Source: a virus
Lineage: Duplodnaviria; Caudoviricetes
Length of the DNA stretch: 45,076 bases
Virus record (IMG/VR): IMGVR_UViG_3300036856_000040
Span: 1 to 45,076 of that record
Reading direction: 5' to 3' (one strand)
In this document: positions 12,667-42,007 of the stretch, piece after piece
Layout: each line of letters begins with the position of its first letter
Position numbering within the stretch: the stretch's first letter is position 1
The notes under the pieces: generated by a model
The model's database searches: none
Seen by the model: the letters and a program-made list of their open reading frames with translations, nothing else
Told to the model about the DNA's origin: nothing
Position numbers and translations under genes: made by a program

Positions 12667-12717
12667 AGGGTCCTAAAACTGTTATACTCCAGAGTATGAA
12701 ACAGGACTCTGGAGTAT
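12661..12717 (+). promoter_or_regulatory. SigA-like promoter and 12-bp hairpin enclosing the HNH start codon
   Basis: TTGTAA-16-TATACT with TGn extension; ATACTCCAGAGT-ATGAAACAGG-ACTCTGGAGTAT. Confidence 0.65.
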
Positions 12718-26986: not shown

Positions 26987-28314
26987 CGTCGCTGCCGGTC
27001 CTGCCGCAGATCATCGTCGAGGCGGGTGTTGAGCCGGACTCGCCGACCGGGCAGGCCAGCACGGTCCTGCGCCTCTCCGACGCCGTGAACGGGAAGCTGG
27101 ACACGGCCACGCTGGGCACGTCGATCGGCTGGGCGGACATCTCCCAGTGGGTGATCGGCTTCACGGTCACCCGGCCGTCGTCGCGGCTGATGGGGCCGCT
27201 GTGGAACTACCAGGCGGGCACGGTCTCGATCGTCCTGGACAACTCCGACGGCCGCTTCGACCCGGACAACCTGTCCGGGCCGTACGTGGTCGCCGGGGTG
27301 ACCCAGCTGACCGCGATGGTCCCGATCCGGGTCCGGGCCAACTTCGCGGGGCTGGCCTACCCGCTGTACCTGGGGTTCGCCGACGGGTGGCTGCCCGCCG
27401 CCGTCACCTACGAAGGCGGCTACACCGAGCTCACCTTGCCCGCCACGGATGCGTTCAAGGTGCTCGCCGGGGTCACGCTGGCCACGACCGCGGCCGAGGG
27501 GATCGGCGCGACCACCGGTGAGCGGGTCAGTGACATCCTGACCCGGTCCGGCTGGTACACCTCCGGCGAATGGCTCGACGTCGGGGCCGGGAACTCCACG
27601 CTGCAGGGCACCACGCTCGGCGCTGACGCCCTGTCCCTGATGCAGATCGCCGTGGACTCCGAGATCGGCCAGCTGTACGTGAGCGGCTCCGGCGCGGTCA
27701 CGTTCCGGGGGCGGCAGTCGATCCTCACCGACACCCGCTCAGCCAGCGTCCAGGCCGTGTTCGGGGACCTGCCCGGCACGAGTCACTCGGCGGGCACCGA
27801 GCTGGCGTGCGAGGAGATCGACCGGGCCAGCGACGACACGACGATCGCCAACGACGTCCAGGCCACCTGTGCCGGCGGGACGCTGCAGGAAGTGCAGGAC
27901 ACCGCGTCGATCATCAAATACCTGTTCCCCCGCACGTACGCCCGCACGGACCTGATCCTGCTGGCCGACTCGGACGCCCTGAACTGGGCGCAGTGGGTGC
28001 TGTACATCGCCAAGAGCGGCGAGGACCGGTTCGAGTCGCTGTCGATCGACCCGGCCGCCGACCCGCAGAATCTGTGGCCGCAGGTGCTGGGCCGGGAGAT
28101 CGGCGACCGGATCCAGGTGTGGCACCGGCCCGCGTCGGTGACCACGCCGATCAGCAAGGACTGTTTCATCACCGGGATCACCCACGCCTGGGACTCGGTG
28201 GCGTCGTCGTGGCTGACGACGTGGACGCTGCAGGACGCCTCCAAATACGGCAGCTTCCTGACCTTGGACAACACGTCGCTGGGCCGCCTCAACTTCAACG
28301 CGCTCACCTACTGA
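26983..28314 (+). CDS. Minor tail/baseplate hub protein
   Basis: AGTVSIVLDNSDGRFDP, EIGDRI, ITGITH; follows TMP. Confidence 0.8.
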   Translation: MTSLPVLPQIIVEAGVEPDSPTGQASTVLRLSDAVNGKLDTATLGTSIGWADISQWVIGFTVTRPSSRLMGPLWNYQAGTVSIVLDNSDGRFDPDNLSGPYVVAGVTQLTAMVPIRVRANFAGLAYPLYLGFADGWLPAAVTYEGGYTELTLPATDAFKVLAGVTLATTAAEGIGATTGERVSDILTRSGWYTSGEWLDVGAGNSTLQGTTLGADALSLMQIAVDSEIGQLYVSGSGAVTFRGRQSILTDTRSASVQAVFGDLPGTSHSAGTELACEEIDRASDDTTIANDVQATCAGGTLQEVQDTASIIKYLFPRTYARTDLILLADSDALNWAQWVLYIAKSGEDRFESLSIDPAADPQNLWPQVLGREIGDRIQVWHRPASVTTPISKDCFITGITHAWDSVASSWLTTWTLQDASKYGSFLTLDNTSLGRLNFNALTY

Positions 28315-28326
28315 GGAGTAACCCTC

Positions 28327-28845
28327 GTGCCACCTACCTGGTCTGTCGGGCAGGTTCTTTCCGCGTCCGACGTGAACAGCTGGTTCGTCGCGCAGAGCGT
28401 GGTCAAGCAGGCTGACGAGTCGGTGACCAGCTCCACGACCCTGCAGTTCGACAATGACCTGACCGTGCCGATCGTGGCCAACGCCTCCTACATCTTCAGC
28501 TGCTACCTGAACTACGAGGGCAACACCCCCACCAACGGTGACCTGAAGTGGGTGTGGGTCCTGCCGACCGGGGCGCTGCTGCGGTACAACCCCGTCTACA
28601 CGAACGCGACCTCGACGCTGAACGTGTCGATCGGCACCACCGTGGCCGGGTCCACGGTCATGACCGGGATCCTGGCGGCGGGCACGAACGGGGCCGGGAA
28701 CCTGCGCGGCATGACCATGACGGGCAGCCTGATCGTCGGCTCCACACCGGGCAGCCTGAGCCTGCAGTGGGCGCAGAACACCTCGTCGGGGACGGCGACG
28801 ACGATCCACGCCCAGTCGACGCTGTCCCTGATCCGGGTGTCGTGA
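28327..28845 (+). CDS. Minor tail/tail tip protein
   Basis: PTWSVGQVLSASDVN, K.ADESVTSSTTLQ.D..L, LQWAQNTS. Confidence 0.75.
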   Translation: MPPTWSVGQVLSASDVNSWFVAQSVVKQADESVTSSTTLQFDNDLTVPIVANASYIFSCYLNYEGNTPTNGDLKWVWVLPTGALLRYNPVYTNATSTLNVSIGTTVAGSTVMTGILAAGTNGAGNLRGMTMTGSLIVGSTPGSLSLQWAQNTSSGTATTIHAQSTLSLIRVS

Positions 28846-29219
28846 CGACCCTGGCTGACCTGGGCGCCGGGCAGGCGTTCATGTTCGTCGCCCAGGTCAC
28901 GGCGATCGACTCCGCGGGCACGCACCTGTCGCTGTTCGGCCCGGCCAGCGCGGCGGGCGGGAGCGCCCTCATGGACTCCAGCGGGGCCCTGTCGGGACAG
29001 CTGACCAGCCCCGCCGATCAGATCCCGGTGACGGTCGTCACCGAGTTCGTGACCGTCTCCGCCGGTGACGTGCTGGCCAGTAATGCGACCGGGCAGACGA
29101 TGGTGGCCCGCGCGGTCACCGTGCAGCCGGACGGCACCTACCAGTGGTCACCGGCCCCGGCCGGGGGCGTCATCTACAAGACGGACGGCTGGTCGATCAT
29201 CGGTCACGTGGATCTCTAG
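28842..29219 (+). CDS. Hypothetical tail-region protein
   Basis: GTGA overlap; high GC3. Confidence 0.65.
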   Translation: MTTLADLGAGQAFMFVAQVTAIDSAGTHLSLFGPASAAGGSALMDSSGALSGQLTSPADQIPVTVVTEFVTVSAGDVLASNATGQTMVARAVTVQPDGTYQWSPAPAGGVIYKTDGWSIIGHVDL

Positions 29220-29371
29220 ACCGCCGCGGTATCGCTGCTCAGCGTGTACCAGACATCACAGTCCGGACAGTGGTGGTGAGCGGCGTGGCCGCGTCCCTGA
29301 TCGCACGTGCACTTCGGGCAATACACCGGGTCGCGCGGGATGAATTCAGCCGCGCACGTCGCCTCATCCAT
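29216..29371 (-). CDS. 51-aa Cys/His-rich protein (antisense moron)
   Basis: MDEATCAAEFIPRDPVYCPKCTCDQGRGHAAHHHCPDCDVWYTLSSDTAAV*; TGn-GACGAT 6 nt before the ATG. Confidence 0.55.
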   Translation of the reverse strand: MDEATCAAEFIPRDPVYCPKCTCDQGRGHAAHHHCPDCDVWYTLSSDTAAV

Positions 29372-29401
29372 TCCCGCATCGTCTCACCACAGGAGGCCAG
29401 C

Positions 29402-29701
29402 ATGGCCACGCCGGTCGAAACCAAGGTCAAGGCCTCATCCGCCGCGGCCGCCCTGGCAGGGCTAGCCCTGTGGGCATTGGGCCGATACATATTCAAGGGC
29501 ACCGTCCCTGACGTGGTGGCGTCCTGGGTGTACGTGATCGTGCCCGCCGTCATCACGTTCGCCGCGGGCTACCTGGCCAAGCACACGAACCGGCCGTCTC
29601 CTTTGGTCCCGCTGAGCATCGGCCAGGACAGCGTCACGCTGGCCAGCCCCAGCACCAAGGATGCGCCAGCTGCGCCCGTGCCGCCGCAGGCAGGCCCCTG
29701 A
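29402..29701 (+). CDS. Holin
   Basis: AGGAGG SD; PVETKVKA, two TM segments, TFAAGYLAKHT. Confidence 0.75.
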   Translation: MATPVETKVKASSAAAALAGLALWALGRYIFKGTVPDVVASWVYVIVPAVITFAAGYLAKHTNRPSPLVPLSIGQDSVTLASPSTKDAPAAPVPPQAGP

Positions 29702-30213
29702 TGACCGAGGACGCGGCCGTGGCCGCGCACGCGGCGGGCCAGTCGCATCACTACCTGATGCACTTCCCGCCCCACCCGGCCAGGACCGCCGACCCGCACT
29801 ACGTGGACTTCAACGCCTACCACAAGGCCCACCGGGCCACCGCCCGCTGCTACATCGGCGAGCGCATCGGCTTCGGCGACTGCATGGACGCCCAGATGCG
29901 GCCCTGCCCGCCACCGGCCAGCGGCGGCCAGCAGCCGGGGCTCGAGCTGCATCACGCCCACGTCGAGTTCAGCTTGCAGAACGGCGTGTCCCTGGCCGCG
30001 CTCGAGCGGGACTATCCGGGAATCTCCGATCCGGACCAGGTCGGCGCGTGGATCGAGACCGAAGCGAACTTCCGGTGGCTGTGCGCGTGGCATCACCGCG
30101 GCGCGGCCGGAGCCCACACGGCCAGCCACAGCGACTGGGAGGCCGGCCAGTACGTGCTGGGCCTCATCACCAAGACACCGCAGACGCCAGCGCCTGAAGG
30201 GGCGGGAATGTGA
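29701..30213 (+). CDS. His-rich HNH-like protein in lysis cassette
   Basis: FPPHPART.DPHY, LELHHAHVEF, NFRWLCAWHHRG. Confidence 0.6.
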   Translation: MTEDAAVAAHAAGQSHHYLMHFPPHPARTADPHYVDFNAYHKAHRATARCYIGERIGFGDCMDAQMRPCPPPASGGQQPGLELHHAHVEFSLQNGVSLAALERDYPGISDPDQVGAWIETEANFRWLCAWHHRGAAGAHTASHSDWEAGQYVLGLITKTPQTPAPEGAGM

Positions 30214-30722
30214 TGACCCTCCCCGCCACCCTGAAGCCCGGCAACTACGGCGTCTCCCACGGCTCCGGGATGGTCGGCGAGCTCATCCGGCACGCCACCG
30301 AGTCCTGGGCCGGGCACGCCTTCGTCTACGTCGGCGACGGCATGATCGTCGAGGGTGCGCCGCCAGCGACCCGGCTGGCCCCGGCCTCATCCCACAGCGA
30401 CGCCGTGTGGAACCTGGACGACCCGCTCACCGACGCCCAGAGGACCGCGATCGTCGCCCGGGCCCACGCCCTCGTCGGCACCCCGTACGACTACGCCGCC
30501 TACATCGGGTTCGCGCTGGAGGTGCTCGGCCTGAAGACCGGCAAACAGCTCGACCCCGTGTTCCGCCGCGACGAGTGGCGGGTGTGCTCCGCCGACGTCG
30601 CCGACGAATACGCCTTCGCCAAGATCGACCTGACGGCCGGGCTGAAATACCCGAACCTGGTCTCCCCGGCCGACCTGTACAACCGCATCGCCCGGCAGAA
30701 CACGGCACCGGCTGCGCCCTGA
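30210..30722 (+). CDS. Permuted NlpC/P60 (YiiX/YebB-like) papain-fold enzyme
   Basis: His motif WAGHAFVY precedes GTPYD and Cys motif VCSADV, then SPADL. Confidence 0.75.
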   Translation: MMTLPATLKPGNYGVSHGSGMVGELIRHATESWAGHAFVYVGDGMIVEGAPPATRLAPASSHSDAVWNLDDPLTDAQRTAIVARAHALVGTPYDYAAYIGFALEVLGLKTGKQLDPVFRRDEWRVCSADVADEYAFAKIDLTAGLKYPNLVSPADLYNRIARQNTAPAAP

Positions 30723-30828
30723 CCAGCAGGGAGATCACACGGGCGGGCGGCACCCCGCCGCGCCCGGCCGCAGAGAGGACACCCAGACCCCGTGTTCGCC
30801 CTGACTCAGTGCGAGAAGGAAGGGTGAC

Positions 30829-31107
30829 GTGCCGGCATGGCCAACGCTGAGGGACATCGGGATCACCGGTACGGGACTCGCGATCGTCTGGTCTCAGTTG
30901 CTGCTGTGGGCGGCGGCGGGCCGTACCCCGTCGGACGTCCTGCTGGCAGTGGGCCTCGGCATGCTCACCCCGACAGCCGCAGCCCACGTCAAGACGGTGC
31001 TCGGCGCGACCGTGTCCGGTCCTGGCTCATCCTCATCGCCATCGGAGCCACCCTCGCCGCCGTCGCCGACGCCATCTGCGCTTCCGGAGGTGGGCACTGG
31101 TGAGTGA
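30829..31107 (+). CDS. Membrane protein (2 TM, Ser/Pro tail)
   Basis: AAGGAAGGG SD; hydrophobic segments. Confidence 0.65.
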   Translation: MPAWPTLRDIGITGTGLAIVWSQLLLWAAAGRTPSDVLLAVGLGMLTPTAAAHVKTVLGATVSGPGSSSSPSEPPSPPSPTPSALPEVGTGE

Positions 31108-31450
31108 GGAGCGCGGCCCGCAGGGCGAGACCGGGGCGACCGGGGCGACCGGCGAGGCGGGGATGCCCCGCAATGTCCGCCGCGCCATCGTCTGGCTGTT
31201 CGCCCTGTCCGTGGTCCTCGCGGCCACCAGCATCCTGTTCACCGTCGGTTTCATCGGCTGGCAGAACTCTCATCAGCGCGCCACCCAGGCCAAGGCCGCG
31301 ATCCCGGTGTGCATGGCGCTGCAGCACCTCGCCCGGGTCAAGGGCACCCACGGCGACTCCGGGGCCACCTATGGCGCGAACCTGCAGCAGGCGTTCCAGC
31401 AGGTGTACGCGGCCACCGGATGCCCGATGATCATGAAGGGAAAGCCATGA
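31100..31450 (+). CDS. Membrane protein with short N-terminal Gly-X-Y repeat
   Basis: GPQGETGATGATGEAG, one TM, two Cys. Confidence 0.65.
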   Translation: MSEERGPQGETGATGATGEAGMPRNVRRAIVWLFALSVVLAATSILFTVGFIGWQNSHQRATQAKAAIPVCMALQHLARVKGTHGDSGATYGANLQQAFQQVYAATGCPMIMKGKP

Positions 31451-32205
31451 CCCTGACCATGGCCGATTCGATCACCCCCACCAACCTGCCCGCCGGATAT
31501 GACGCCTACCTCGGCTACGTCGATGGCCACTGGCCCACGGCGGCCGCCCTGAAGCGGCGGTTCCCCGGCTCCCGCATCCTCACCCTGACCGTGCTCGGCG
31601 GCAACGCCGTGGCCGACGGCTGCGACCGGGAACCGGGCGACCTGAGCCCGGCGACCGCGGCGGCCTGGGCGCACGGCAGGCTCGCCGCTGGCGCGGTGCT
31701 GCCGGTCGTGTACGCGAGCGCGTCGGCGATGGGCGGCGTCCTGGAGGCGCTGATCGCCCGGGGGATAGCCCGGGCCGAGGTGCGCCTGCTGTCCGCCCAC
31801 TACGGCGGCGGCCGTCACATCTGCGGGCCCGCCACCTGCCGCCTGACCAGCGTGGCCATGGACGGCACCCAGTGGACCGATTCCGCGCCCGGCGTCGGCG
31901 GGACCCGCATCGACGCCTCGCTGCTGTCCGCTGACTTCTTCGGCGCCCACGCCCCCACGCCCCCCACCTCATCCTCGTGGCAGGAGACGATCATGAACGC
32001 ACTCCCCGAAGTGAAGCAGCCCAACTACGGCCCGGCCGTCCGGACCGTCCAGGGCCTGCTGCTGGCCCGGGGCTGCAGCCTCACCCTCGACGGCGTGTTC
32101 GGGCCGGCCACGGAGACGACGCTGAAGCGGTTCCAGGGCAGCGCACATCTGAGCGCTGACGGGGTCGTGGGGCCGCTCACGTACGCGGCGCTGCTGGACG
32201 TGTAG
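31447..32205 (+). CDS. Endolysin: GH25-like catalytic domain plus peptidoglycan-binding domain
   Basis: GYVDG, CDREPGD, PVVYAS, SAHY, GTQWTD; C-terminal GPAVRTVQGLL..DGVFGPAT...FQ...ADGVVGPLT. Confidence 0.8.
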   Translation: MTLTMADSITPTNLPAGYDAYLGYVDGHWPTAAALKRRFPGSRILTLTVLGGNAVADGCDREPGDLSPATAAAWAHGRLAAGAVLPVVYASASAMGGVLEALIARGIARAEVRLLSAHYGGGRHICGPATCRLTSVAMDGTQWTDSAPGVGGTRIDASLLSADFFGAHAPTPPTSSSWQETIMNALPEVKQPNYGPAVRTVQGLLLARGCSLTLDGVFGPATETTLKRFQGSAHLSADGVVGPLTYAALLDV

Positions 32206-32396
32206 TTGCTACGCTGAGCCAGCGGGAAGGTGCTCGCACTTCGCAGTGCGGTAGCTGGACGCCGAGGCTGTGCACGGCCGGAGCGGACGACATAAATGGC
32301 CCGGGCGGCAGCCTAACCCGCACTCATTCTTGACTGCCAGGTAGCGGAGATCGGCACCGCAGCGGCGTGGCCCCGGCCGTACGCCACGGGACACAG

Positions 32397-32432
32397 AAGC
32401 CCCCGTCACCCGTTCAGGGTGGCGGGGGCTTT
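32397..32432. terminator. Bidirectional terminator-like hairpin ending the late operon
   Basis: AAGCCCCCGTCACCC-GTTCA-GGGTGGCGGGGGCTTT. Confidence 0.7.
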
Positions 32433-32451
32433 CTGCATGCGGCTGGGCTGC

Positions 32452-32670
32452 TCAGCTTCTGCCGGATGCCGAAGAGCCAGTAGGGATGCGTAGCGACAAC
32501 CGCTTGTGCTCCTCCGCACACGCCACGGCCTCCTTGGTGCCGGTGTGCTTGTGCGGGCACGCCCACCGCACCTCGCTGCTGTGGCGCAGCACACCCTGAT
32601 AGCTCCTGTGCTCGGCGTATCCATCGGGCCGCAGATTGTTCCGCCAGCCCGGCCAAATCGTGTCGTCCAT
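32452..32670 (-). CDS. Hypothetical protein with CPHKH...AC motif
   Basis: GGAGG/GAGGGG SD; WACPHKHTGTKEAVACA. Confidence 0.55.
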   Translation of the reverse strand: MDDTIWPGWRNNLRPDGYAEHRSYQGVLRHSSEVRWACPHKHTGTKEAVACAEEHKRLSLRIPTGSSASGRS

Positions 32671-32700
32671 GCCCCTCATCCTCCCTGAGATAATGGCCCT

Positions 32701-32862
32701 ATGGCCACCGACGTCATCCCCTCGCCGCTCCCCGACCTGAGCGGCCTCACCCTCACCCAGCTCGCCGCCCTGCCCACCATCGGCGAAGTCCTCGCCCACA
32801 TGAACCAGGACGGCACCGTCAGCGTGCCCCGCAAGCGGCGCGGCTTCAACTCGGCGATCTAA
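32701..32862 (+). CDS. fxsA: FxSxx-COOH (FxsA-like) RiPP precursor peptide, 53 aa
   Basis: MATDVIPSPLPDLSGLTLTQLAAL...RKRRGFNSAI*; leader LPDLSGL.L..L and terminal F-x-S-x-x; TGn-GATAAT 6 nt upstream. Confidence 0.8.
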   Translation: MATDVIPSPLPDLSGLTLTQLAALPTIGEVLAHMNQDGTVSVPRKRRGFNSAI

Positions 32863-32920
32863 GCGGCCAGCCGGGCACCCGGCCTCCATGGCTGGGCCGG
32901 GTGCCCTACTGGCCGGTCAG

Positions 32921-33040
32921 CTACTTGCCCTTGTTCTGGATGAGGTCGCCGCCGACGACGTTGCCGACCGCGATCTGGTTGCCGCTCTCGTCTTCGCCGT
33001 CGGCCTGCTCGACCGGCTTGCCGTTGATCGTGACCTTCAT
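32921..33040 (-). CDS. 39-aa microprotein
   Basis: MKVTINGKPVEQADGEDESGNQIAVGNVVGGDLIQNKGK*; high GC3. Confidence 0.6.
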   Translation of the reverse strand: MKVTINGKPVEQADGEDESGNQIAVGNVVGGDLIQNKGK

Positions 33041-33047
33041 GGCCTGG

Positions 33048-33200
33048 CTACTTCTTCTTCTTGGCGTCGTTCTTCTGGTCGAGCATGAAGTTGACGCGGT
33101 TGAGGCCGTCCTTGGCGTCCTTCTCAGCGGCCCGCTTGAACGCCCACTTCTCGATCTCGCGCTTCGCGGAGTCAGAGATCTGGTTGTCCTTCTTGCCCAT
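33048..33200 (-). CDS. 50-aa Lys-rich microprotein
   Basis: AAAGGACAGGACC-ATG; MGKKDNQISDSAKREIEKW...KKKK*. Confidence 0.7.
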   Translation of the reverse strand: MGKKDNQISDSAKREIEKWAFKRAAEKDAKDGLNRVNFMLDQKNDAKKKK

Positions 33201-33281
33201 GGTCCTGTCCTTTCGCCCGGGGCCAGCCCTGTGCTGACTGCCCGATCGGCCGCACGTGCGAGACGCGCGGCCTCGGGGCCG

Positions 33282-33449
33282 TCACCCCCCGAAGATGATC
33301 CGGTCGGCCGCGGCCTCCTCTTCGGGGCTGCAGTTGCGGTAGGCGGACCGCAGCAGGTTGGCCGTCTTCTTCGCCTGTTCGGGGTCCTGCTGGCCGGTCT
33401 GCTTGGCCAGCTTGACCACTTTGTCCACCTGGGATTTCCGGAGTGCCAT
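33282..33449 (-). CDS. 55-aa microprotein
   Basis: GAAGGACAGGACG-ATG; MALRKSQVDKVVKLAK...DRIIFGG*. Confidence 0.7.
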   Translation of the reverse strand: MALRKSQVDKVVKLAKQTGQQDPEQAKKTANLLRSAYRNCSPEEEAAADRIIFGG

Positions 33450-33468
33450 CGTCCTGTCCTTCCGTTGG

Positions 33469-33684
33469 TTACTTCCTGGTAATGAACGCCCGCCACTGCG
33501 CCGGGCTGAACGCCAGCACCGGCCCAGCCGGGTCCTTGCTGTCCCGCACCGCCACCACGGCCGGGCCGTTCCCGGCCTCAACGCAGTTGCTCTGGAACGA
33601 GCTGGCCGAGGCCTTCCGCCAGCCGGCCACCTCCACACAGTTGCCGTTCGAAAAGCTGTACGAGGACTTACGCCACATGGTCAT
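33469..33684 (-). CDS. DUF397 (BldB/Scr2-like) protein
   Basis: WRKSSYS..GNCVEVA (duplicated) and VAVRDSKDPAGPVLAFSPAQWRAF. Confidence 0.9.
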   Translation of the reverse strand: MTMWRKSSYSFSNGNCVEVAGWRKASASSFQSNCVEAGNGPAVVAVRDSKDPAGPVLAFSPAQWRAFITRK

Positions 33685-34052
33685 CACCTCCTCTCGCTGC
33701 CACGCTGGAGCGCGGCCAACTGCTCTGCCTGCTCGGCCGGAGTGCCGTGCAGGTGGATGTGGAGCTCGCGCGGGACCTCGATCGCCTGGACCGGCCGGCC
33801 GGTTAGCGCCGGGCGCTCCGGCCCGGCCAGGTACATCGGCCGGCCCCCGGTGGCCACCTGGGCGCCGTTGCGGGCCATCCACACCAGCACGCCGACCGCC
33901 ACCACCACGGCCAGGCCGACCATCAGGCCGACGATCAGCTCATAGGCAAGCACCAGCCACACCGCCAGCGCCGCCCCGCCCAGCGTGCCGAGCGTGGCCA
34001 GCACCTTGCCGTCGCCGCAGCCAGGGCAGTGCAGGCCCGGGCATCCGCTCAT
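33684..34052 (-). CDS. Membrane protein (Cys-rich N-terminus, 2 TM, ELHIHLHG)
   Basis: ATGA and TGATG coupling; hydrophobic segments. Confidence 0.7.
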   Translation of the reverse strand: MSGCPGLHCPGCGDGKVLATLGTLGGAALAVWLVLAYELIVGLMVGLAVVVAVGVLVWMARNGAQVATGGRPMYLAGPERPALTGRPVQAIEVPRELHIHLHGTPAEQAEQLAALQRGSERR

Positions 34053-34291
34053 CGTTGCCTCCTCTTGGCCCGCTCCTGGAGCGAGACCGCGCCGCGGTGG
34101 ATCGTCTTCGCGCCGAGACGGCGCCGGTTGCCAGCACCCCGGCAGCGTCGGCACTGACCCCACCGGCTGCTGTTGCTGCCCGGGTTCCGGCCGGTGCCCT
34201 CGCAGCGGCGGCACTTCGCGAACGGCCACAGGTACAGCGACCCGGCCCACCCGCCTACGGCCAGCAGAGCCAGCCCGATGGTCTCGATCAT
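34049..34291 (-). CDS. Membrane-anchored DnaJ-type zinc-finger protein
   Basis: TM then WPFAKCRRCEGTG...CRRCRGAG.RRRLG. Confidence 0.75.
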   Translation of the reverse strand: MIETIGLALLAVGGWAGSLYLWPFAKCRRCEGTGRNPGSNSSRWGQCRRCRGAGNRRRLGAKTIHRGAVSLQERAKRRQR

Positions 34292-34298
34292 GTCCGCC

Positions 34299-34778
34299 TC
34301 ACACGTGCTCCAGCGGGCACGCCTCGATGCCCTCTTTGAACGCCGCGCAGGCCGCGCGGCGGCAGTCCTCGTCGTTGCATGACCGGTAGTCGTGCTGCGG
34401 GGCGCGCTGTTTCGGCGCGGGCCGGGCCTTCTGGCGGCGCTGGGCCGCGGCAGCCTTCCGCCGGTCGGCCGCCGCCTTGCGCCGGGCCTTGGCCTTCTCC
34501 CGCTGCCGGGCCCGGGTCGCCGCCTTCCGCTCGCGTTCCCGCTGCCGCTTCTCGGCCGCCTTGGCCCGGCGGGCCGCGGCCGCCTTCTGCCGCTCGGCCG
34601 CGCGCTGGCGCTTCCTGAAGTCGGTCTTGACCGTGCACGTGTGGGTCAGCGGGTTGGTGTACCGCTTGCCGCACGTGCCGCACCGGCGGCTCGTCGCCCG
34701 CTGGGCCCGCCGCCGGACGCGGGTCTTCAGCTTCGGCTTCTTCCTGGCCGGCTTGGACAGGTCGATCAGCTTCGCCAC
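34299..34778 (-). CDS. Highly basic zinc-binding protein
   Basis: GGAGGTG SD; CGTC...HTC, Arg/Lys/Ala helix, HDYRSC...C...C. Confidence 0.7.
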   Translation of the reverse strand: MAKLIDLSKPARKKPKLKTRVRRRAQRATSRRCGTCGKRYTNPLTHTCTVKTDFRKRQRAAERQKAAAARRAKAAEKRQRERERKAATRARQREKAKARRKAAADRRKAAAAQRRQKARPAPKQRAPQHDYRSCNDEDCRRAACAAFKEGIEACPLEHV

Positions 34779-34791
34779 GGAGTCACCTCCG

Positions 34792-34913
34792 GGTCGCGGC
34801 AGACGATTCCAGGTCGCGGCTGCGCGACCGGCGCTGACCTGCACAAATGGTGTTTGCCGCGACCTGCCGCGACCTGAGCCACCGCGCTGACCTGCGAGGT
34901 CGCGGGTCGCGGC
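34792..34913. repeat. clt-like array of 8-10-bp repeats (putative TraB recognition sequences)
   Basis: GGTCGCGG at 34792, 34812, 34898, 34905; CCGCGACC at 34857, 34867; GCGCTGACCTGC at 34831, 34884; non-coding, directly 3' of traB. Confidence 0.7.
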
Positions 34914-34926
34914 CGAATCGGCGCGC

Positions 34927-37011
34927 TCACTGCTCTGCTGCCTTCAGGACGTCCGCGCGGCGGCACCCCTTCACGGCGCGACCGAACGCCTTCACGTCCA
35001 CGCTGGGCACGCCCAGCGCCCGGCACTCGGCCGACACGGCGCCCGGGTTCGTCTCGGCCCAGCGCTCCGGAATCTGCGCCTGGAGCCGCCCGGCCAGCTG
35101 CGGCCACTGGAGCCCAGCGTCATCGCCGAACACCCGCAGCACGTCAGCCAGGACGTCCCGGTCGTCCTGCTCGGCCTCCTGGCCCAGCGCCATCCCGGCC
35201 AGCGTCCCGGCCTTGCTCCGCAGCGCCCGGGCCGCGGTCAGGATCTTCTCCGCGTCCCGGCCGTCGGCCAGGTAGGTGCGCACCGTCGGGGACTTGTCCG
35301 TGGCCCCGCGCAGGATGCCGACACCCTTGTACTCCGGCAGCAGCGTCGAGGTGTCCAGGCCCTCGCTGTACGCTCCGGCACCCAGGCACAGCTCCGACAC
35401 CTGCCACGACGAGGTGCGCAGGCCGAACTTGATCTGGTGGTTGTCGCGGAAGCTGGTGAACTGCTGGCCCACCTGCCCCGACCCGACACCCGATGGCCGC
35501 TGCGTTGAGTCGAGCAGGATGATGCCGACGCTCGGCCCGATCTTCACCAGGTGGGTGAGCAGCGAGGCGACCGTCTTGCTGGCGTCGCCCAGGTCGTAGA
35601 CCTCCTGAAACTCGTCCATGACCAGCAGTCGGACCGGCATCCGGTACCGGGGGTCGCGGGCGATCTCCCTGGTCAGCTTCCCTTCGGGGCAGATCGTGGA
35701 CGGCAGCTCGGACAGCCGGTGGTTGCGGTCCTGGACGTCGGCCTTGATGGCCTCCAGCGTGTTGCCGAAGATCTCCAGCGGGTCACCGTCGCGGGTCCGG
35801 GTCAGGCCGAAGCCGCACGAGTCCGCGACCAGCGCGAACTTCCGCCAGTCCGGGGAGCCCTTGAAGTCGAACACGTCCAGCTTCACGTGCGGGTCCAGGG
35901 CCGCGTACAGGGCCAGCTGGCGGGCCGAGAACGTCTTGCCCTGCCGGGGCAGCGCCGAGACCAGGATCGACTGCCACAGCAGCGGCACGGTGACCAGCTG
36001 GCCGCGCTCGTCCAGGCCGAACGGCGCGGGCTTCCAGATATCGGTCGCGGTGCACTTCAGCAGCGGTGTCCGGCCGACCGGCACGGCCAGCGGGTCACGG
36101 TCGGCGACCCACAGGGTGTGGCGCCGGTAGCTGGTCGGGTCGCGATGCAGGAACACCTGGGACAGCGAGACGTCCAGGCCGGACGCCAGCGCGGGCTTGG
36201 CCTTCGTCGCGTCGTCGAGGCCCTTGCCGTAGGGCAGGTCGATCGCCACCCGGGAGCCCTCGCCGTCCCGGCTCATCGGAGAGCCGAACGTGACCTGCTG
36301 GCCATCCTTCTCCGGATCGCCCAGGCCAGCGGCGTAGTAGGCCCGCAGGACCACGTCGGCGCTGATCACCCGGAACCGCGGCGTGATCATCGACGGGGTG
36401 ATGATCGGCCGGTCCGCGGGCCGGCCGGCCCGGGCCAGCATCACGACGGCCACCACTGCGGCGGCGATGGCGATCAGCAGCTTGTCCGGGGAGTACCGCA
36501 GGAACACGCCCACCAGCACGCACAGAACGACCAGGGCGATCGTGGCGATGGCCCGCCGCTCGTCCCGCTGCTTCTTCGCCGCGGTGGCCAGGGCCCGGTA
36601 CTCGCGGCTGTCACCGTTGATGACGGCCTGGGACCGCAGCGGGGTGTGGTCAGCCACCGACAGCCACGCGGCCAGGTTCCCGGCCGTGACGACCAGGCCA
36701 TACGCGGCCCAGCCGAGCGTCTTGGCCAGGTACCAGGGTGCCCGCAGCCCGTGGAAGGCGGCGTGGTGGCCGGCCGTGGTGGCCAGCCGGGCCGCTTCGG
36801 CCCGGGCCACGGCCGCCGACTGGAGCGGGGCCGGGATGATCGAGCGGCGCTCACCGTCGAACGGCAGGCGGGCGACCGCCTCACCGTCGTGCACAGGCGC
36901 GACGTCGGCATCCGGCGCCTGGTCGATCGCCACCTCGTAGCTCGTGTCGAACTTCTCGGGCGCGTCCTGGTCGGACTTGTCGGGGAACGGGACGATCTCG
37001 GCGTCGGCCAT
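34927..37011 (-). CDS. traB: TraB/TraSA-like FtsK/SpoIIIE DNA translocase
   Basis: N-terminal TMs, ALPRQGKT (Walker A), DFKG, LLVMDEFQE (Walker B), STQRPS, C-terminal wHTH-like DVLADVLRVF...RALGVPS. Confidence 0.85.
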   Translation of the reverse strand: MADAEIVPFPDKSDQDAPEKFDTSYEVAIDQAPDADVAPVHDGEAVARLPFDGERRSIIPAPLQSAAVARAEAARLATTAGHHAAFHGLRAPWYLAKTLGWAAYGLVVTAGNLAAWLSVADHTPLRSQAVINGDSREYRALATAAKKQRDERRAIATIALVVLCVLVGVFLRYSPDKLLIAIAAAVVAVVMLARAGRPADRPIITPSMITPRFRVISADVVLRAYYAAGLGDPEKDGQQVTFGSPMSRDGEGSRVAIDLPYGKGLDDATKAKPALASGLDVSLSQVFLHRDPTSYRRHTLWVADRDPLAVPVGRTPLLKCTATDIWKPAPFGLDERGQLVTVPLLWQSILVSALPRQGKTFSARQLALYAALDPHVKLDVFDFKGSPDWRKFALVADSCGFGLTRTRDGDPLEIFGNTLEAIKADVQDRNHRLSELPSTICPEGKLTREIARDPRYRMPVRLLVMDEFQEVYDLGDASKTVASLLTHLVKIGPSVGIILLDSTQRPSGVGSGQVGQQFTSFRDNHQIKFGLRTSSWQVSELCLGAGAYSEGLDTSTLLPEYKGVGILRGATDKSPTVRTYLADGRDAEKILTAARALRSKAGTLAGMALGQEAEQDDRDVLADVLRVFGDDAGLQWPQLAGRLQAQIPERWAETNPGAVSAECRALGVPSVDVKAFGRAVKGCRRADVLKAAEQ

Positions 37012-37211
37012 CAGGCCCACCTCCAGTCAGCGGGGCGAAGCGGGTAGCGGAGAACATGCCGGACGGCCAGCCACAGCCCCGCCGTAGCGGCCGCGGCCAG
37101 GACGATGACGGCGAGCAGCGGGACATTGAAGGTCAGGCCGGCCACGGTGGCCCGGGCCGGGACCGCGGCGACGGCCAGGACAAAGGCGAGCAGCTTGAGC
37201 AGCGCGGTCAC
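37011..37211 (-). CDS. Small 2-TM membrane protein (Spd-like)
   Basis: Hydrophobic; TGATG coupling to traB. Confidence 0.7.
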   Translation of the reverse strand: MTALLKLLAFVLAVAAVPARATVAGLTFNVPLLAVIVLAAAATAGLWLAVRHVLRYPLRPADWRWA

Positions 37212-37369
37212 CGGCCCGGCCCCCTCTGGTCGCCGCGGGTCACCTTGCTGTCCTGCGGCGGGCGGCGGCCGCTCATCGCGGCAGCGTTGTGGTGGCGGAC
37301 CTTGCGCAGCTCCGACAGCCGGCCGCTGAGCGGCGCACCGGCGGTCGCGTTCAGGATGCGGTCACTCAT
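37208..37369 (-). CDS. 53-aa basic hypothetical protein
   Basis: ATGA and GTGA overlaps; MSDRILNATAGAPLSGRLSELRKVRHHN... Confidence 0.55.
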   Translation of the reverse strand: MSDRILNATAGAPLSGRLSELRKVRHHNAAAMSGRRPPQDSKVTRGDQRGPGR

Positions 37370-38094
37370 GACGCACCGTCCGTACCTGGCACCAGCGACC
37401 GCAGATAGGCCCTTACCTCAGTGGCCTTGTCCTGGCCGACGTGGAGTCGCGTCTTGATCGCCTCGATGCCGGGTGTCCGCCCGGCCAGCAGGTCGGCGGC
37501 GAACTCCGTACTCGCCTGCCGGTGCAGCTCGGGTAGCCCTACCTCGTCACTGTCCCCGGTGCTCAGCCAGTCGAGCAGCTTGTCGACGGGCGCGTCGGGC
37601 TCCGGCCGGTCCGGCGCGGCCGGGCTGGGCTCAGGTAGGGCCGCGTCCTCGCCGGGCCCGGGCCGGTCGCCGTCAGGTAGGGCGCGCAGCAGGTGCGTCA
37701 GCGCGGCCCCGAATCCGAGGGTGACGACCGGCAGGCAGGCGACCAGCACGACCACCGGCCACGGGGCCCGGGTACGGCCCGCCGCGGTCAGCAGGTGGAA
37801 GATGATCTGCCCGAGCATGCCGAGCACGAGGGCGCCGATAGCGGACCGGCGGGCGAACGTGCGGGCCCGGGCCGGGGTGCCGCCGTGCAGCCACGCGCCG
37901 AGCGCGAACGCCCCGTACGCCTCGACACCGACCGGCAGCGTGATCGCCGTGTTGAGATGCCAGGCGACGATGCCGGGCAGCGGCTGGACGAGGCCGAAGC
38001 CGCACAGCTCGCCCAGGCCGACCCAGCCGGACCAGATGGCCACGGCCGCGGGGGAGGCGATGAAGAACAGCGGCCAGCGGCGGGGGGCGTTCAC
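37366..38094 (-). CDS. SpdB/DUF2637-like 4-TM spread protein with C-terminal HTH-like region
   Basis: WSGWVGLG, LPVGVEAY, VACLPVVTLG, then PGIEAIKTRLHVGQDKA. Confidence 0.7.
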   Translation of the reverse strand: MNAPRRWPLFFIASPAAVAIWSGWVGLGELCGFGLVQPLPGIVAWHLNTAITLPVGVEAYGAFALGAWLHGGTPARARTFARRSAIGALVLGMLGQIIFHLLTAAGRTRAPWPVVVLVACLPVVTLGFGAALTHLLRALPDGDRPGPGEDAALPEPSPAAPDRPEPDAPVDKLLDWLSTGDSDEVGLPELHRQASTEFAADLLAGRTPGIEAIKTRLHVGQDKATEVRAYLRSLVPGTDGAS

Positions 38095-38318
38095 GACGCC
38101 CCGCCGGCCATCTCGTCAATGAGGTCGAGCAGATGCCGGACGGTGGCCCGGGCTTCGCCGAACGCGACCGCGAACACGAACGCATCGCCCTTGGGGAAGT
38201 CCTGCGGCTGGGCCAGCTGGTGGGCGTCGGAGTTCGCGACCTTGCGGGCCCGCTCCAGCGTCATCCGCTGGGTGTGGGTCAGTCTGGACGCGCCGGGCGC
38301 GTCGTCTTTAGAGTTCAC
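38091..38318 (-). CDS. Hypothetical protein
   Basis: GGAAGAGG SD; GTGA overlap. Confidence 0.7.
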   Translation of the reverse strand: MNSKDDAPGASRLTHTQRMTLERARKVANSDAHQLAQPQDFPKGDAFVFAVAFGEARATVRHLLDLIDEMAGGAS

Positions 38319-38354
38319 GGTGGGCCTCTTCCTGCTAGCTCAGGTTGGGGTCAA

Positions 38355-38387
38355 GGGCCGCGGGCGTGTTCCACCACCCCGCGGCCC
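38355..38387 (-). promoter_or_regulatory. GC hairpin in the leader of the transfer operon
   Basis: GGGCCGCGGG...CCCGCGGCCC 10-bp stem with GTG-GTGGAA-CAC apex on the minus strand. Confidence 0.55.
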
Positions 38388-38389
38388 GC

Positions 38390-38611
38390 CTATTCAGTTG
38401 GTAAGACGTTCAGTTCCCGGTCCAGGTCATCGAGCGTTCGAGCAGTCACATAGTGCTGCGCTCCGCTGGTGACCCGGGTAGCGCACCAGCCGGGGGCGCC
38501 GTCGTTCCGGCCGATCTCCCACCGGTCGCCATGCCGGGCGCGGACCTCCGCCAGGCCGATCGCCAGTGCGTCATCCATGAGCGCCCGGGCGTCAGCCGGC
38601 GTGATGTCCAC
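38390..38611 (-). CDS. Hypothetical protein, first gene of the transfer operon
   Basis: Leaderless-type promoter; HGDRWEI...WCATR...VTARTLDDL. Confidence 0.7.
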   Translation of the reverse strand: MDITPADARALMDDALAIGLAEVRARHGDRWEIGRNDGAPGWCATRVTSGAQHYVTARTLDDLDRELNVLPTE

Positions 38612-38694
38612 GTGACCAGCGTACGACTATAGCTGACTATGGCAAGGGTTACCTTGCGTAGTCACGCCATGGGCGGGTGCGCTAACTTGCCCCG
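38612..38694. promoter_or_regulatory. Divergent promoters with palindromic operator
   Basis: Minus TTGCCA-16-TACGCT-6-GTG; plus TAACTT-6-ATG; TGACTA-TG-GCAAGG-GTTA-CCTTGC-G-TAGTCA (38634-38664); extra GACTAT at 38625. Confidence 0.65.
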
Positions 38695-38934
38695 ATGATC
38701 ATCGATCCCGACTCACCAGAACACCCATACCTGCAGCTAGCGAGCTATCTGAGACAACGGATCAGGGACGGCGACCTGACCTCGAAACTTCCGTCCCTGA
38801 CCGCCCTCACCGAGGAGACCGGGCTCGCCCTGAACACCGTTCAGCGCGCCGTCCGGGTCCTGAAAGACGAGGGCCTGGTCTACACGGTGCCCGGCCGTGG
38901 CGTGTTCGTGAGCAAGGACCCCCGCCGTCCCTAG
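38695..38934 (+). CDS. GntR-family repressor (KorSA/KorA-like, wHTH only)
   Basis: PYLQLASYLRQRIRDG...LPS..AL.EETGLALNTVQRAVRVLKDEGLVYTVPGRGVFV. Confidence 0.9.
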   Translation: MIIDPDSPEHPYLQLASYLRQRIRDGDLTSKLPSLTALTEETGLALNTVQRAVRVLKDEGLVYTVPGRGVFVSKDPRRP

Positions 38935-38950
38935 CGGCGGGGGTCCTTGC
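38912..38950. terminator. 16-bp perfect hairpin between convergent gntR and int
   Basis: GCAAGGACCCCCGCCG-TCCCTAG-CGGCGGGGGTCCTTGC. Confidence 0.7.
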
Positions 38951-39025
38951 GGCTCGGAAGGGCAGCGGCACGCCGCTACTGCCCGGGCAGGTGTGTCGCC
39001 ATGGCTTGCCATAGCAAGGACTCCG

Positions 39026-39922
39026 TTACCCGCTCTTCTTGCGGCCCCGGACCGGCCGCAGCGCCGTCGGCACCGGCAGCGCCCGGACCGTCTCGACGGC
39101 CTCCACGTTGTCGAACGCGGCGTATCCGGCGGTGGTGTGCGGGTAGGCGTGGCCCATCAGCTCCTGGACGACGCGAAGGTCGTGCTTGGCCCGGTAGGTG
39201 TTCGTCCCGAACCAGTGCCTCAGCTTGTGCAGCGTGGAGACCGACCCGCACTCGTGCAGGTGCTCGTTGGCGAGCTGGGACACCAGCCACGGCTTGTTCG
39301 GGCCCGGGTGCCCGTCGTGGCGGCGGAACACATACCCCATGTGCCGGCCGGGCAGCGCGGCCAGCTCGGCCGCGGCGAACTCGTGCAGCGGGATCGTCCG
39401 CTCCCGGATGCCCTTCGTGGCGTCAGCGGCGACCAGCAGCACCGGCGGCTCGGCGTTGGCGAGCACGTTCTCCCACCGCAGCAAGGCGATCTCCTTGGCC
39501 CGCAGGCCGCACCAGGCGGCCAGGACGAGCCAGGGCCGTATGCGGGCGTCGGCGGTGGCGACCGCGTACGCCAGGTCCTCGTCGCTGATCGGGCGGGGCA
39601 GGCGCCGCCCGGTCTTCGGCACCGGGACCCGGGCGGTCGGGTCGTCTTCCCGCTGCCCCTCCTGCATCATCCAGCGGTAGAAACTGCGGATGTGCGAGAC
39701 GTACCCGGCGATCGTGTCGTTGGTCACGGTCAGGGACAGGCGCCACCGGATCAGATCATCGTCGGTGGCGTCCCTTAAAGGACCGGGGGTACTCCGCGCC
39801 AGCAGCCGCAGCGCGCGCGCCCGGTTGTAGATGGTGTTGTCGGCCAGGCCGAGCAGGTGCATGTACCTGAGGTGCGCAGCGATGAGAGCAGCATCCTGCG
39901 CCGAGAAGATCGGCATAGACAT
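39026..39922 (-). CDS. int: Tyrosine integrase lacking an arm-binding domain
   Basis: GLRAKEI (R), TKG (K), HKLRH, MGHA, TTAGY; about 298 aa. Confidence 0.9.
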   Translation of the reverse strand: MSMPIFSAQDAALIAAHLRYMHLLGLADNTIYNRARALRLLARSTPGPLRDATDDDLIRWRLSLTVTNDTIAGYVSHIRSFYRWMMQEGQREDDPTARVPVPKTGRRLPRPISDEDLAYAVATADARIRPWLVLAAWCGLRAKEIALLRWENVLANAEPPVLLVAADATKGIRERTIPLHEFAAAELAALPGRHMGYVFRRHDGHPGPNKPWLVSQLANEHLHECGSVSTLHKLRHWFGTNTYRAKHDLRVVQELMGHAYPHTTAGYAAFDNVEAVETVRALPVPTALRPVRGRKKSG

Positions 39923-40043
39923 CCTCGTCCATTTGTCATGGATGACCCCCCCGGGATCACTTCCGTACATCTGGACGACGCCCGACCCTTTAGGAAAGTT
40001 TACAAACTACAAGTAATTGGGGTTATTTAGCCGTCACTGTCCG

Positions 40044-40403
40044 CTATGCCACGTGATGGAGGGTTCTACTCAAGTGAAGCCCTGAACTCAAACCTGATAT
40101 GAACCCCCCGCCACGCTGGGCTTTTGAGGTTTCACGGCTGATCTTCGAGCCCCCCCGGCCCGTAGGGTCCGTATCGGCCAGCCAGGCGAACGGTACCCCC
40201 GTCCGCAATGCCCACATCTTGAGGTATGCGGCCTTCGGCGCGGCACCGCGGTCGTTGAGCCAGCGACCCACTGTAGACCGGCTGACGCCCATCTCGTCGG
40301 CCATCTCCTCGACGCCGATTCCGGCGTGCGAGAGCGAGCGCTGAAGCCGCCAGCCGAGCGTCCACTCCGGGATCTCGCCCATCGTCTCAGGCAGTTCTGT
40401 CAT
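40044..40403 (-). CDS. Immunity repressor (XRE HTH, BPs/Brujita-like)
   Basis: IPEWTLGWRLQRSL...MADEMGVSRSTVGRW...WALRTGVPFAWL; low-GC C-terminal tail. Confidence 0.85.
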   Translation of the reverse strand: MTELPETMGEIPEWTLGWRLQRSLSHAGIGVEEMADEMGVSRSTVGRWLNDRGAAPKAAYLKMWALRTGVPFAWLADTDPTGRGGSKISRETSKAQRGGGFISGLSSGLHLSRTLHHVA

Positions 40404-40449
40404 GCGTTCCCCAGCCTTCTTCGAGCGCACGCGGGTGCACGCCCTCCGC

Positions 40450-40570
40450 GCGTCATTGTGCGTCGCATGACCGACGTACGTCAAGGCGGCGCTAGGTGAC
40501 AAAGTCGTTACCCTGCTTCATTTGACCGGCGTGCGCCAATGGGGCAAGATGACGCCATGACCAATGACGC
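40450..40570. promoter_or_regulatory. Divergent repressor/cro promoters with ATGACGC operator-like motifs
   Basis: Minus TTGACG-18-CACAAT; plus TTGACC-17-CAAGAT-6-ATG; ATGACGC at both -10 boxes and AATGACGC at 40563. Confidence 0.65.
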
Positions 40571-40757
40571 ACTGATGACCAGCACCGAGGCCGGTGCGGT
40601 TCTGGGCAAGAGCGGCCGGACCGTTCAGCGCATGGCCGAGAACGGCGAGCTGGCCTACGTGCGCAAGCTGCCCGGCAAGAACGGTGCCTACCTGTTCGAC
40701 AGCGCCGTGATCGAGAGCGCCGCGGCCGGGCGGCCGTCAGAGCAGGTCAGCACCTGA
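40557..40757 (+). CDS. Cro-like HTH protein
   Basis: MTSTEAGAVLGKSGRTVQRMAENGEL..RKLPGKNGAYLFD; divergent from the repressor. Confidence 0.8.
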   Translation: MTNDALMTSTEAGAVLGKSGRTVQRMAENGELAYVRKLPGKNGAYLFDSAVIESAAAGRPSEQVST

Positions 40758-40764
40758 AACGAAC

Positions 40765-40817
40765 GGGGCGCCCTGCTGTCACAGGACGCCCCACCCGGCG
40801 GGGAGCACTGCGCCGGG
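40765..40817 (+). promoter_or_regulatory. Tandem hairpins after cro
   Basis: GGGGCG.CCTG/CAGG.CGCCCC and CCCGGCG/CGCCGGG, then AGGGAG SD. Confidence 0.45.
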
Positions 40818-40843
40818 AATCTCAACCAGCATAGGGAGCACCA

Positions 40844-41206
40844 GTGCAGAACCGCAGCAAGCCGCAACTGACCGGCCAGCAGCAACGCCGCGTGGACGAG
40901 GCCCGGCAGATCGCCGACGCCGAGGCCCGGGACGTCGCCGGTAACTACGGCCACACTCCCGCCGGACCGTACGGGTACGCCTTCGGTGCGGCCCAGAGCG
41001 TCATCAAGGCCCTGCTCGACGTCATCGCCGAACTGGCCGACGAGCAGTCCGCCGCGGACCGGGCCGTCACCGAGCAGCTGCGCCGGGACGGTGAGGCCCT
41101 CGGCCACGCCATCGCGGCCGACCTGGACGAGCAGACGGGTGGCCCCCTGGGGATCGTCTGCGTCCGGCCGGGCGAGCAGGACGAGCAGACGGACGGCGAG
41201 AAGTGA
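40844..41206 (+). CDS. Hypothetical early protein
   Basis: AGGGAG SD. Confidence 0.7.
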   Translation: MQNRSKPQLTGQQQRRVDEARQIADAEARDVAGNYGHTPAGPYGYAFGAAQSVIKALLDVIAELADEQSAADRAVTEQLRRDGEALGHAIAADLDEQTGGPLGIVCVRPGEQDEQTDGEK

Positions 41207-41517
41207 GCACCGTCGCTGAGCGGGTGGCAGCCGGGGCCGCGTTCCTGGACGAGCAGGAGCCCGGCTGGGACAAGCGTGTCGATCCGAACCAACTGGACAT
41301 CGGGGCAAGCTGCAAATGCCCCCTCGGTCAGCTCCACGGCTCGTACAGCGATGGGCTGCTATCCACGGGAATCCTCGACCTGTATGGGACCTCCGCCGAC
41401 ATTGACCACGGCTTCATGTGGGCGTCGCGGGACCGGTTCGAAGACGTGCGGGCCGAGATCTTCGTCCTGACCGCCGAGTGGAAGCGGGTCATCACCGAAC
41501 GGCGGGCCGCACAGTGA
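41203..41517 (+). CDS. Conserved phage hypothetical protein
   Basis: ERVAAGAAFLD..EPGW...LDI...C.LGQL.GSY...LTAEWK. Confidence 0.75.
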   Translation: MSTVAERVAAGAAFLDEQEPGWDKRVDPNQLDIGASCKCPLGQLHGSYSDGLLSTGILDLYGTSADIDHGFMWASRDRFEDVRAEIFVLTAEWKRVITERRAAQ

Positions 41518-41780
41518 CCGCCCTGGCCGTCCCGCTGGCCCGCCGCGCCACCGGCCGTCACCGCCTCACCTGGAAGCAGCGGCTCATTCGCCGGAACGAG
41601 CGTGCCGCCCGCGAACTGGACCGCGCCCAGCCCCGCCGGCAAGCCAGGCGGGCCGCTCACGTCCTCATCCGCACGTCCTCCGCGCCCGCCTACGCGGGCA
41701 ACGGCCACTACCTGGCCGCGTTCGAAACCGCCGCCGGGCTGCTCCTGGCCGGCCTGATTCTCCTGGTGGTGTTCTGGTGA
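41514..41780 (+). CDS. Basic protein with C-terminal TM anchor
   Basis: GTGA overlaps on both sides. Confidence 0.6.
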   Translation: MTALAVPLARRATGRHRLTWKQRLIRRNERAARELDRAQPRRQARRAAHVLIRTSSAPAYAGNGHYLAAFETAAGLLLAGLILLVVFW

Positions 41781-42007
41781 AGACGATCAACCTGCTGACC
41801 CCGGCCGAAGTGGCCGCCATGTTCCGGGTCGACCCCAAGACAGTGACCCGCTGGGCCAAGGTGGGCCGGCTCACCAGCACGCGCACGCTCGGCGGCGCAC
41901 GGCGCTACTTCGACGTCGAGGTAGAGGCCCTGCTGCGGGGCGTGCCGCTCAGCGAGCGGGAGCGCACGGCCCTGGCGGCCGACTACGCCAAGCAGGTGCT
42001 CGGATGA
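41777..42007 (+). CDS. bldC: BldC homologue (developmental MerR-like regulator)
   Basis: LLTPAEVAAMFRVDPKTVTRWAKVGRLTSTRTLGGARRY versus recalled Streptomyces BldC LLTPAEVATMFRVDPKTVTRWAKAGKLTSIRTLGGHRRY. Confidence 0.85.
   Translation: MKTINLLTPAEVAAMFRVDPKTVTRWAKVGRLTSTRTLGGARRYFDVEVEALLRGVPLSERERTALAADYAKQVLG

Follow-up and report, generated by a model that had tools for sequence, protein, structure and literature searches.

A 53-residue peptide encoded by a likely temperate actinophage is very probably derived from FxsA, the FxSxx-COOH precursor found in actinobacterial Fxs loci, without being a canonical member of that family. We propose, tentatively, that it acts as a counter-defence decoy of the predicted Fxs suicide system of the host, a reading whose probability we place a little short of even. 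The original prediction had seen in this gene an orphan FxsA precursor with which the phage mimics the substrate of host FxsB. It is partly supported, in that the FxsA origin, the orphan state, the recurrence in phages, and the presence of Fxs loci in the likely host genus all hold.

The phage record and the peptide gene

The stretch of DNA analyzed here (the window) is a whole 45-kb virus record of about 70% GC, with a 127-bp terminal repeat and a completeness estimated by CheckV at 73%. It contains genes for terminase, portal, capsid, tail tube, endolysin, and a tyrosine integrase (39026 to 39970, minus strand; PF00589); it is likely to be a temperate actinophage, as the integrase points to. 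The peptide gene lies just 3' of the endolysin gene (31447 to 32205, plus strand; PF01471 and PHROG endolysin) and faces a minus-strand cassette of small genes, a DUF397 gene, and a gene for an FtsK-like protein.

The prediction of a 53-residue ORF with an FxsA-type leader and a C-terminal FNSAI was borne out. The ORF (32701 to 32862, plus strand) begins with ATG and ends with FNSAI directly before the stop codon, and its length falls within the approximately 45 to 60 residues typical of FxsA. The GC content by codon position (0.66/0.49/0.98) follows a coding pattern. An overlapping antisense frame of 145 residues was rejected as a gene; its values were 0.94/0.52/0.68, and because the codon-position GC is coding-like only on the plus frame, the antisense frame is a shadow of the peptide ORF.

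The leader motif LPDLSGLTLTQL occupies residues 10 to 21 (32728 to 32763, plus strand), the part matched by the leader-only profile described below. In an alignment of 12 rows from the phage clade and hosts, D12, L13, L18, and E29 were invariant, as were F49 and I53 of the core FNSAI (32845 to 32859, plus strand) at the free C terminus, with S51 nearly so. Phe49 and Ser51 would be the predicted cyclophane pair. Just before the core lies a basic insert, RKRR, at residues 44 to 47 (32830 to 32841, plus strand), which gives four K/R in six residues; the original prediction makes no mention of it. An FxSxx directly before the stop is present in the peptide and in none of the other 583 stop-terminated frames of at least 40 residues in the window.

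The facing cassette (32900 to 38320, minus strand) encodes the FtsK/SpoIIIE-like protein (34927 to 37020), a membrane protein, the DUF397 protein, and several small basic products, and is plasmid- or ICE-like. Akin cassettes were seen in L001, L002, and L008 and in the chromosomes of two actinomycete genomes, G239 and G204; such an FtsK cassette suggests mycelial spreading of the prophage. The DUF397 gene, which is convergent to the peptide gene (33469 to 33678, minus strand; PF04149, E = 1.5e-26), had no adjoining HTH partner. Lone DUF397 copies are tied to conflict systems in the available text of Kaur et al. (2020, PMC7159879), and by eye, the peptide genes of L139 and L075 also have a DUF397-like gene close by.

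Elsewhere in the window, we noted a Dam-like N6-adenine methyltransferase gene (858 to 1508, plus strand; PF05869), a gene for an HNH endonuclease with WRKY19-like zinc-finger repeats directly 3' of the capsid gene (12594 to 13511, plus strand), and a 1261-residue protein of the virion region with a PhoD-like phosphatase domain (16069 to 19854, plus strand; E = 3.5e-9). There is also a gene for a BldC-family regulator (41777 to 42007, plus strand; NF033787, 92 bits against a cut-off of 77), whose DNA is 75 to 88% similar to that of a gene present in the genomes of many actinomycetes. This regulator could interfere with host development.

Signals around the gene

The peptide gene had been predicted to possess its own extended -10 element 6 nt upstream, and we found the extended -10-like motif TGAGATAAT at 32686 to 32694 (plus strand), 6 nt 5' of the ATG. 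Across both strands of the window, this is the single instance of TGnnATAAT; in the related phage G003 (L008, L192, L193), there is likewise one instance in about 44 kb, at the orthologous place. With the first T of the hexamer missing, this is not a consensus promoter, and a sigma-70 consensus scan of 31800 to 33800 returned no sites. Judged from its spacing to the ATG, TGAGATAAT is likely the promoter of a leaderless mRNA. M-x-x-M starts, which fit the same upstream motif, are called in 10 of the 16 clade proteins.

Read from the opposite strand, the motif gives CATTAT, which overlaps the start region of a 72-residue divergent ORF (32452 to 32670, minus strand). This ORF has no family match in NCBIfam, Pfam, or PHROGs, and in G003 a HIT-domain gene takes its place. 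The motif may act in both directions, with ATAATG as the plus-strand and CATTAT as the minus-strand reading of one -10 element, or it could serve the divergent ORF instead.

Hairpins flank the gene on both sides. The one after the endolysin gene (32394 to 32435, plus strand) likely ends the late operon and insulates the peptide gene. The other, a GC-rich hairpin of about -48 kcal/mol (32865 to 32914), is likely a terminator common to the peptide gene and the convergent minus-strand cassette; it was missed by the terminator scan because it has no U-tract. The promoter motif, the 3' hairpin, and the position of the gene are all kept in G003.

Relationship to FxsA

One expectation failed: TIGR04268, the FxsA model, gives no match to the peptide, an outcome that the original prediction had named as grounds for rejecting it, and the peptide is without a match in NCBIfam, Pfam, and PHROGs. 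None of four host precursors encoded immediately 5' of fxsB in the best-matching genus reaches the curated TIGR04268 cut-off of 28 bits either (18.1 and 18.8 bits, and two without a match). We therefore judged this cut-off too strict for this host group.

Among 1.84 billion proteins, phmmer found three short relatives of 60 to 73% identity. A single-sequence word search with the peptide returned only the peptide itself. For the six closest relatives, namely, these three and three cluster members, TIGR04268 was the sole NCBIfam match in every case (14 to 24 bits). The sister of 73% identity, which matches TIGR04268, has a host-type tail. Another relative, 57% identical, carries a precomputed match to PF27839; the Pfam copy that we used gave no match even for proteins with such a precomputed match and seems to be without the model. 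Among the Atlas neighbours of the peptide, PF27839 was present in 19 to 23% of members, with a score of 0.84, below the 0.9 mark.

For a more sensitive comparison, profiles were derived from a genome scan that gave 116 loci. Inspection by eye removed 62 of them (out-of-frame hits, chance hits, and non-precursors). Removal of near-copies from the 54 bacterial-genome copies that were kept left a training set of 31, which includes a few prophage copies. With the leader-only profile, the peptide scored 11.0 bits as compared to 7.2 for the top of 583 decoy frames, and 1 of 2000 shuffles scored as high, part of this leader match being favoured by a training set chosen with the D-L pattern. With the full-length profile, the peptide reached 11.1 bits, less than all 31 leave-one-out bacterial scores (15.7 to 62), and 74 of 2000 leader-shuffled controls with the core kept scored as high. 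In a tree of 118 rows and 58 columns, many forks of which are open, the peptide fell on a 16-row branch (support 98/89) among FxSxx-COOH proteins, several of them named for Streptosporangiaceae or Trebonia. Together, the leader profile, the TIGR04268-matching relatives, the precomputed PF27839 match, and the tree bear out the predicted origin in the FxsA family.

Orphan state and recurrence in phages

The record contains no radical SAM gene, as had been claimed: neither PF04055 nor FxsB (TIGR04269) matched, and tblastn of the window with host FxsB, HExxH, FxsC, and FxsT sequences gave no match. A survey of phages for orphan fxsA, which the original prediction had proposed, showed that partnerless copies recur. 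Pattern scans of IMG/VR yielded nine other viral records with eight distinct FxSxx peptides, two of which pass the TIGR04268 cut-off and one of which (L018) is doubtful, with 7.0 bits and a leader score of -1.6. On inspection by eye, 6 of 9, 2 of 3, 6 of 8, and 2 of 9 loci from the viral scans were dropped on the same grounds as in the genome scan. The viral counts are a floor, since only genes with an intact core and a narrow choice of codons could match the scan patterns; core-mutated copies lay outside their scope.

FxsB was absent from all nine viral records searched for it, which include the window and of which four are at least 90% complete; record G001 was searched for PF04055 only. An Fxs partner was found in the fetched flanks of none of the eight viral loci and not in the window, as compared to 34 of 39 bacterial loci. 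The five partnerless bacterial copies comprise two in Streptosporangium prophage lysis modules, one among RusA/HNH genes, one beside an integrase, and one with no mobile context. The two FxsA-like genes of the lysis modules (L062:3501-3662 and L092:3393-3626) lie between or after endolysin and holin, the same position as that of the window gene.

The other viral peptides have differing gene contexts. In G002, a canonical FxsA (L005:4941-5108, 38.6 bits) is inserted, in antisense, midway through a module of phage tail genes, and this peptide and the window clade are on different branches of the tree. In the complete 115-kb phage G011, the doubtful FxSxx gene (L018:3700-4228) overlaps a downstream gene whose product resembles, by eye, an anti-sigma ATPase. 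Thus, fxsA appears to have been captured repeatedly by phages. A tblastn search of 50,697 GenBank phage records with the peptide and two canonical viral copies gave chance matches only, and scans for related loci in viral contigs (peptide query) and metagenomes (clade query) were empty. No phage-borne FxsA was found in the literature covered, outside of which lie most subscription journals and supplements.

Basic insert and mosaic tails

We compared the number of K/R in the six residues before the core Phe. The 54 bacterial copies, in which small or apolar residues prevail at this place, have none (38 copies), one (14), or two (2). At least three were found in 5 of 13 members of the motif-defined clade versus 0 of 99 other profile matches with a core, six rows without a core having been left out. 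An RKRR-like basic insert was present in none of the 153 rows outside the clade (the 99 profile matches and the 54 bacterial copies).

Within the clade, the first halves of two members, P0003 and P0008, are near letter-identical, while their tails differ, one being basic and the other canonical. The window peptide likewise combines a basic tail with the leader of a canonical-tailed sister. The clade is made up of mosaic alleles, one basic tail being joined to two different leaders, for which both recombination and convergence are possible. The core is intact in 12 of the 13 clade members and lost or changed in some relatives (P0068, P0011). The clade may not be wholly phage-borne, genomic context being at hand for 2 of 16 members.

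The peptides of the window and G003 differ at 40% of residues. Their dN/dS was 0.77 over 52 codons, as compared to 0.49 and 0.45 for two neighbour genes. This indicates fast change under weaker constraint than that of the neighbours and fits decay as well as diversification.

The likely host genus and its Fxs locus

For the region 28000 to 45000, DNA similarity was greatest to G239 (Streptosporangiaceae), with 78% over a 1.9-kb part of the FtsK gene; two other families (samples of Streptomycetaceae and Micromonosporaceae) gave 72% and 75% over shorter stretches. The host is likely to belong to the Streptosporangiaceae, a guess based on one mobile cassette, and the elements matched in host genomes are not prophages of the window type.

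The anticipated fxsB loci are present in the likely host genus, where FxsB scored over the cut-off in four of eight genomes. FxsB had no match in G239 or G204, the two best DNA-match genomes. When the clade profile was run against 251 genomes of the family, three were matched at all, and the better of two full-length matches was in G025, a member of the same genus as G239. Its locus comprises fxsA, fxsB (radical SAM/SPASM with an HExxH extension), fxsC (TIR), and fxsT (ParA-like ATPase, TIR, NB-ARC, and TPR). PADLOC gave no full match for an Fxs system. A complex prediction for the peptide with the TPR region of FxsT from a stand-in host scored 0.00, which speaks neither for nor against binding. 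Fxs loci are widespread in mycelial actinomycetes; their chemistry is known, MscB being an FxsB-family enzyme, while their biological role is only predicted.

Discussion

According to the available text of Kaur et al. (2020, PMC7159879), FxSxx peptides are tied to conflict systems, in which they were suggested to be a toxin or a signal. FxsC and FxsT are described as a predicted TIR-ParA apoptosis system, functionally uncharacterized, in the accessible part of Li, Burroughs, and Aravind (2026, 10.64898/2026.10.19.760177), where the Fxs peptide is suggested as a possible antiviral agent or alert. FxsB-type cyclophane chemistry has been reviewed (PMC10114670, PMC11002830, and PMC11499958, each in part); for triceptides, a Phe-to-Ser cyclophane (-2 Da) is installed by a 3-CyFE, with the chemistry known for MscB (PMC11002830).

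If the peptide is a decoy, its gene would be expressed independently of its neighbours, from a leaderless mRNA. The leader would then compete with host FxsA for FxsB, the radical SAM maturase of the host, by engaging either this enzyme or its HExxH extension, and the RKRR insert would spoil the release or recognition of the cyclised core. Less of the host antiviral or alarm peptide would be made, and the death response of FxsC (TIR) and FxsT (ParA-STAND-TPR) would be damped. Clade alleles with canonical tails could act by plain competition or supply an off-signal, and tail swapping might reflect matching to different host alleles. In favour of this reading are the FxsA origin, the orphan state, the repeated capture by phages, the Fxs loci of the likely host genus with their TIR and ParA-TIR-NB-ARC-TPR anatomy, and the signals kept in G003.

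The intact core counts against a pure dead-end inhibitor because such an inhibitor needs no core. Further points stand against a decoy: the peptide lacks a curated family match and scores low on the full-length profile, its dN/dS fits decay as well, the best DNA-match genomes are without FxsB, the Fxs loci are functionally uncharacterized, and a gene that is insulated and has a promoter to itself, in a phage with an integrase, also fits a benefit to the lysogen. A broader version is possible but more doubtful still: that actinophages repeatedly capture the precursor of a RiPP-gated TIR/STAND immunity, phage and host alleles being locked in an arms race, and that the window clade has evolved an allele whose basic insert leaves maturase binding intact but prevents conversion to the alarm peptide.

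The benefit to the lysogen could take the form of a prophage moron peptide that is matured by host FxsB and primes or broadens Fxs defence against competing phages. We consider this unlikely, although it accommodates the integrase, the promoter-like motif between two hairpins 3' of the lysis genes, the core kept intact in nearly all clade members, the copies in Streptosporangium lysis modules, and the antiviral or alert role proposed in the part of 10.64898/2026.10.19.760177 available. The basic insert, seen in 0 of 54 bacterial copies, argues against a faithful substrate, and copies are also found in 115-kb and 175-kb phage records.

Still less probable is that Fxs peptides regulate development or stress and that the phage copy is a hijacked signal of this nonimmune kind, steering host physiology or the choice between lysis and lysogeny. 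The published Fxs function is without an experimental basis in the accessible portions of PMC7159879 and 10.64898/2026.10.19.760177, and the phage does carry a BldC-family regulator over the NF033787 cut-off. However, the host partner proteins, being of the TIR and STAND-TPR types, are of a kind typically seen in immune loci, and the surroundings of the peptide gene contain neither an export gene nor a receptor gene dedicated to it.

We give an equally low probability to neutral cargo, that is, fxsA genes picked up by chance and now decaying, with a basic insert produced by drift. The dN/dS of the peptide, its low profile score, and the lost or changed core of P0068 and P0011 would fit such decay, as would two phages that have a related FtsK cassette but, in the flanks fetched, nothing comparable to the peptide gene. 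Yet, the frame, terminal FxSxx, leader, promoter motif, and hairpin are kept across two phages whose peptides differ so widely, partnerless copies recur in unrelated phages, and the same basic tail is found on two leader backgrounds.

Last, chance likeness of an unrelated small phage protein, with a coincidental FNSAI end and leucine pattern, is largely refuted and very improbable: despite the missing curated family match and the Atlas score below the mark, the leader test and the core test are separately significant, and the closest sister has a host-type tail and matches TIGR04268.

Were the decoy reading true, RiPP-precursor mimicry would join the known counter-defence strategies, with a natural inhibitor of a cyclophane synthase pathway; were the broader version true, RiPP-precursor decoys would be a new anti-defence class and would constitute genetic evidence for Fxs loci as antiviral. 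The repeated capture of a lone precursor by unrelated phages is in itself independent evidence that the Fxs system meets phages. Host-type and basic-tailed alleles with near-identical leaders provide matched reagents for testing defence and sabotage.

Comparison with known systems

The peptide resembles the FxsA precursors (TIGR04268, PF27839), which are matured by FxsB (TIGR04269), in its size, its D-L-x-x-x-x-L leader, and its terminal F-x-S-x-x. It differs from them in having no fxsB, HExxH, fxsC, or fxsT neighbours and no TIGR04268 match, in carrying RKRR where the host precursors have small residues, and in possessing its own promoter-like motif. The likely host genus carries a fxsA-fxsB-fxsC-fxsT locus with TIR, ParA-like, NB-ARC, and TPR domains, as in the actinobacterial Fxs and TIR-ParA conflict loci, whose function is predicted only. 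In contrast, the phage has the peptide alone, and the available parts of the two descriptions of these loci (PMC7159879; 10.64898/2026.10.19.760177) make no mention of a phage-borne precursor.

The anti-phage lanthipeptides of Actinobacteria indicate, in the portion of the report accessible (10.1101/2024.06.26.600839), that a RiPP inside the cell can protect an actinomycete from phages. They differ from the present case in their chemistry and in their complete clusters, and the escape described in that portion occurs via mutation of a phage GNAT rather than via a precursor mimic.

Phages also carry orphan antitoxin-like genes for counter-defence, with pseudo-ToxI and T4 Dmd among the examples. 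As in the gene directed against DarTG1 (PMC11825919, available text), one component of a host system is kept here and the rest dropped. The component in the window, known from sequence alone, is a RiPP precursor and not an antitoxin; like an orphan counter-defence mimic, the peptide is a lone component of a host system that recurs in phages.
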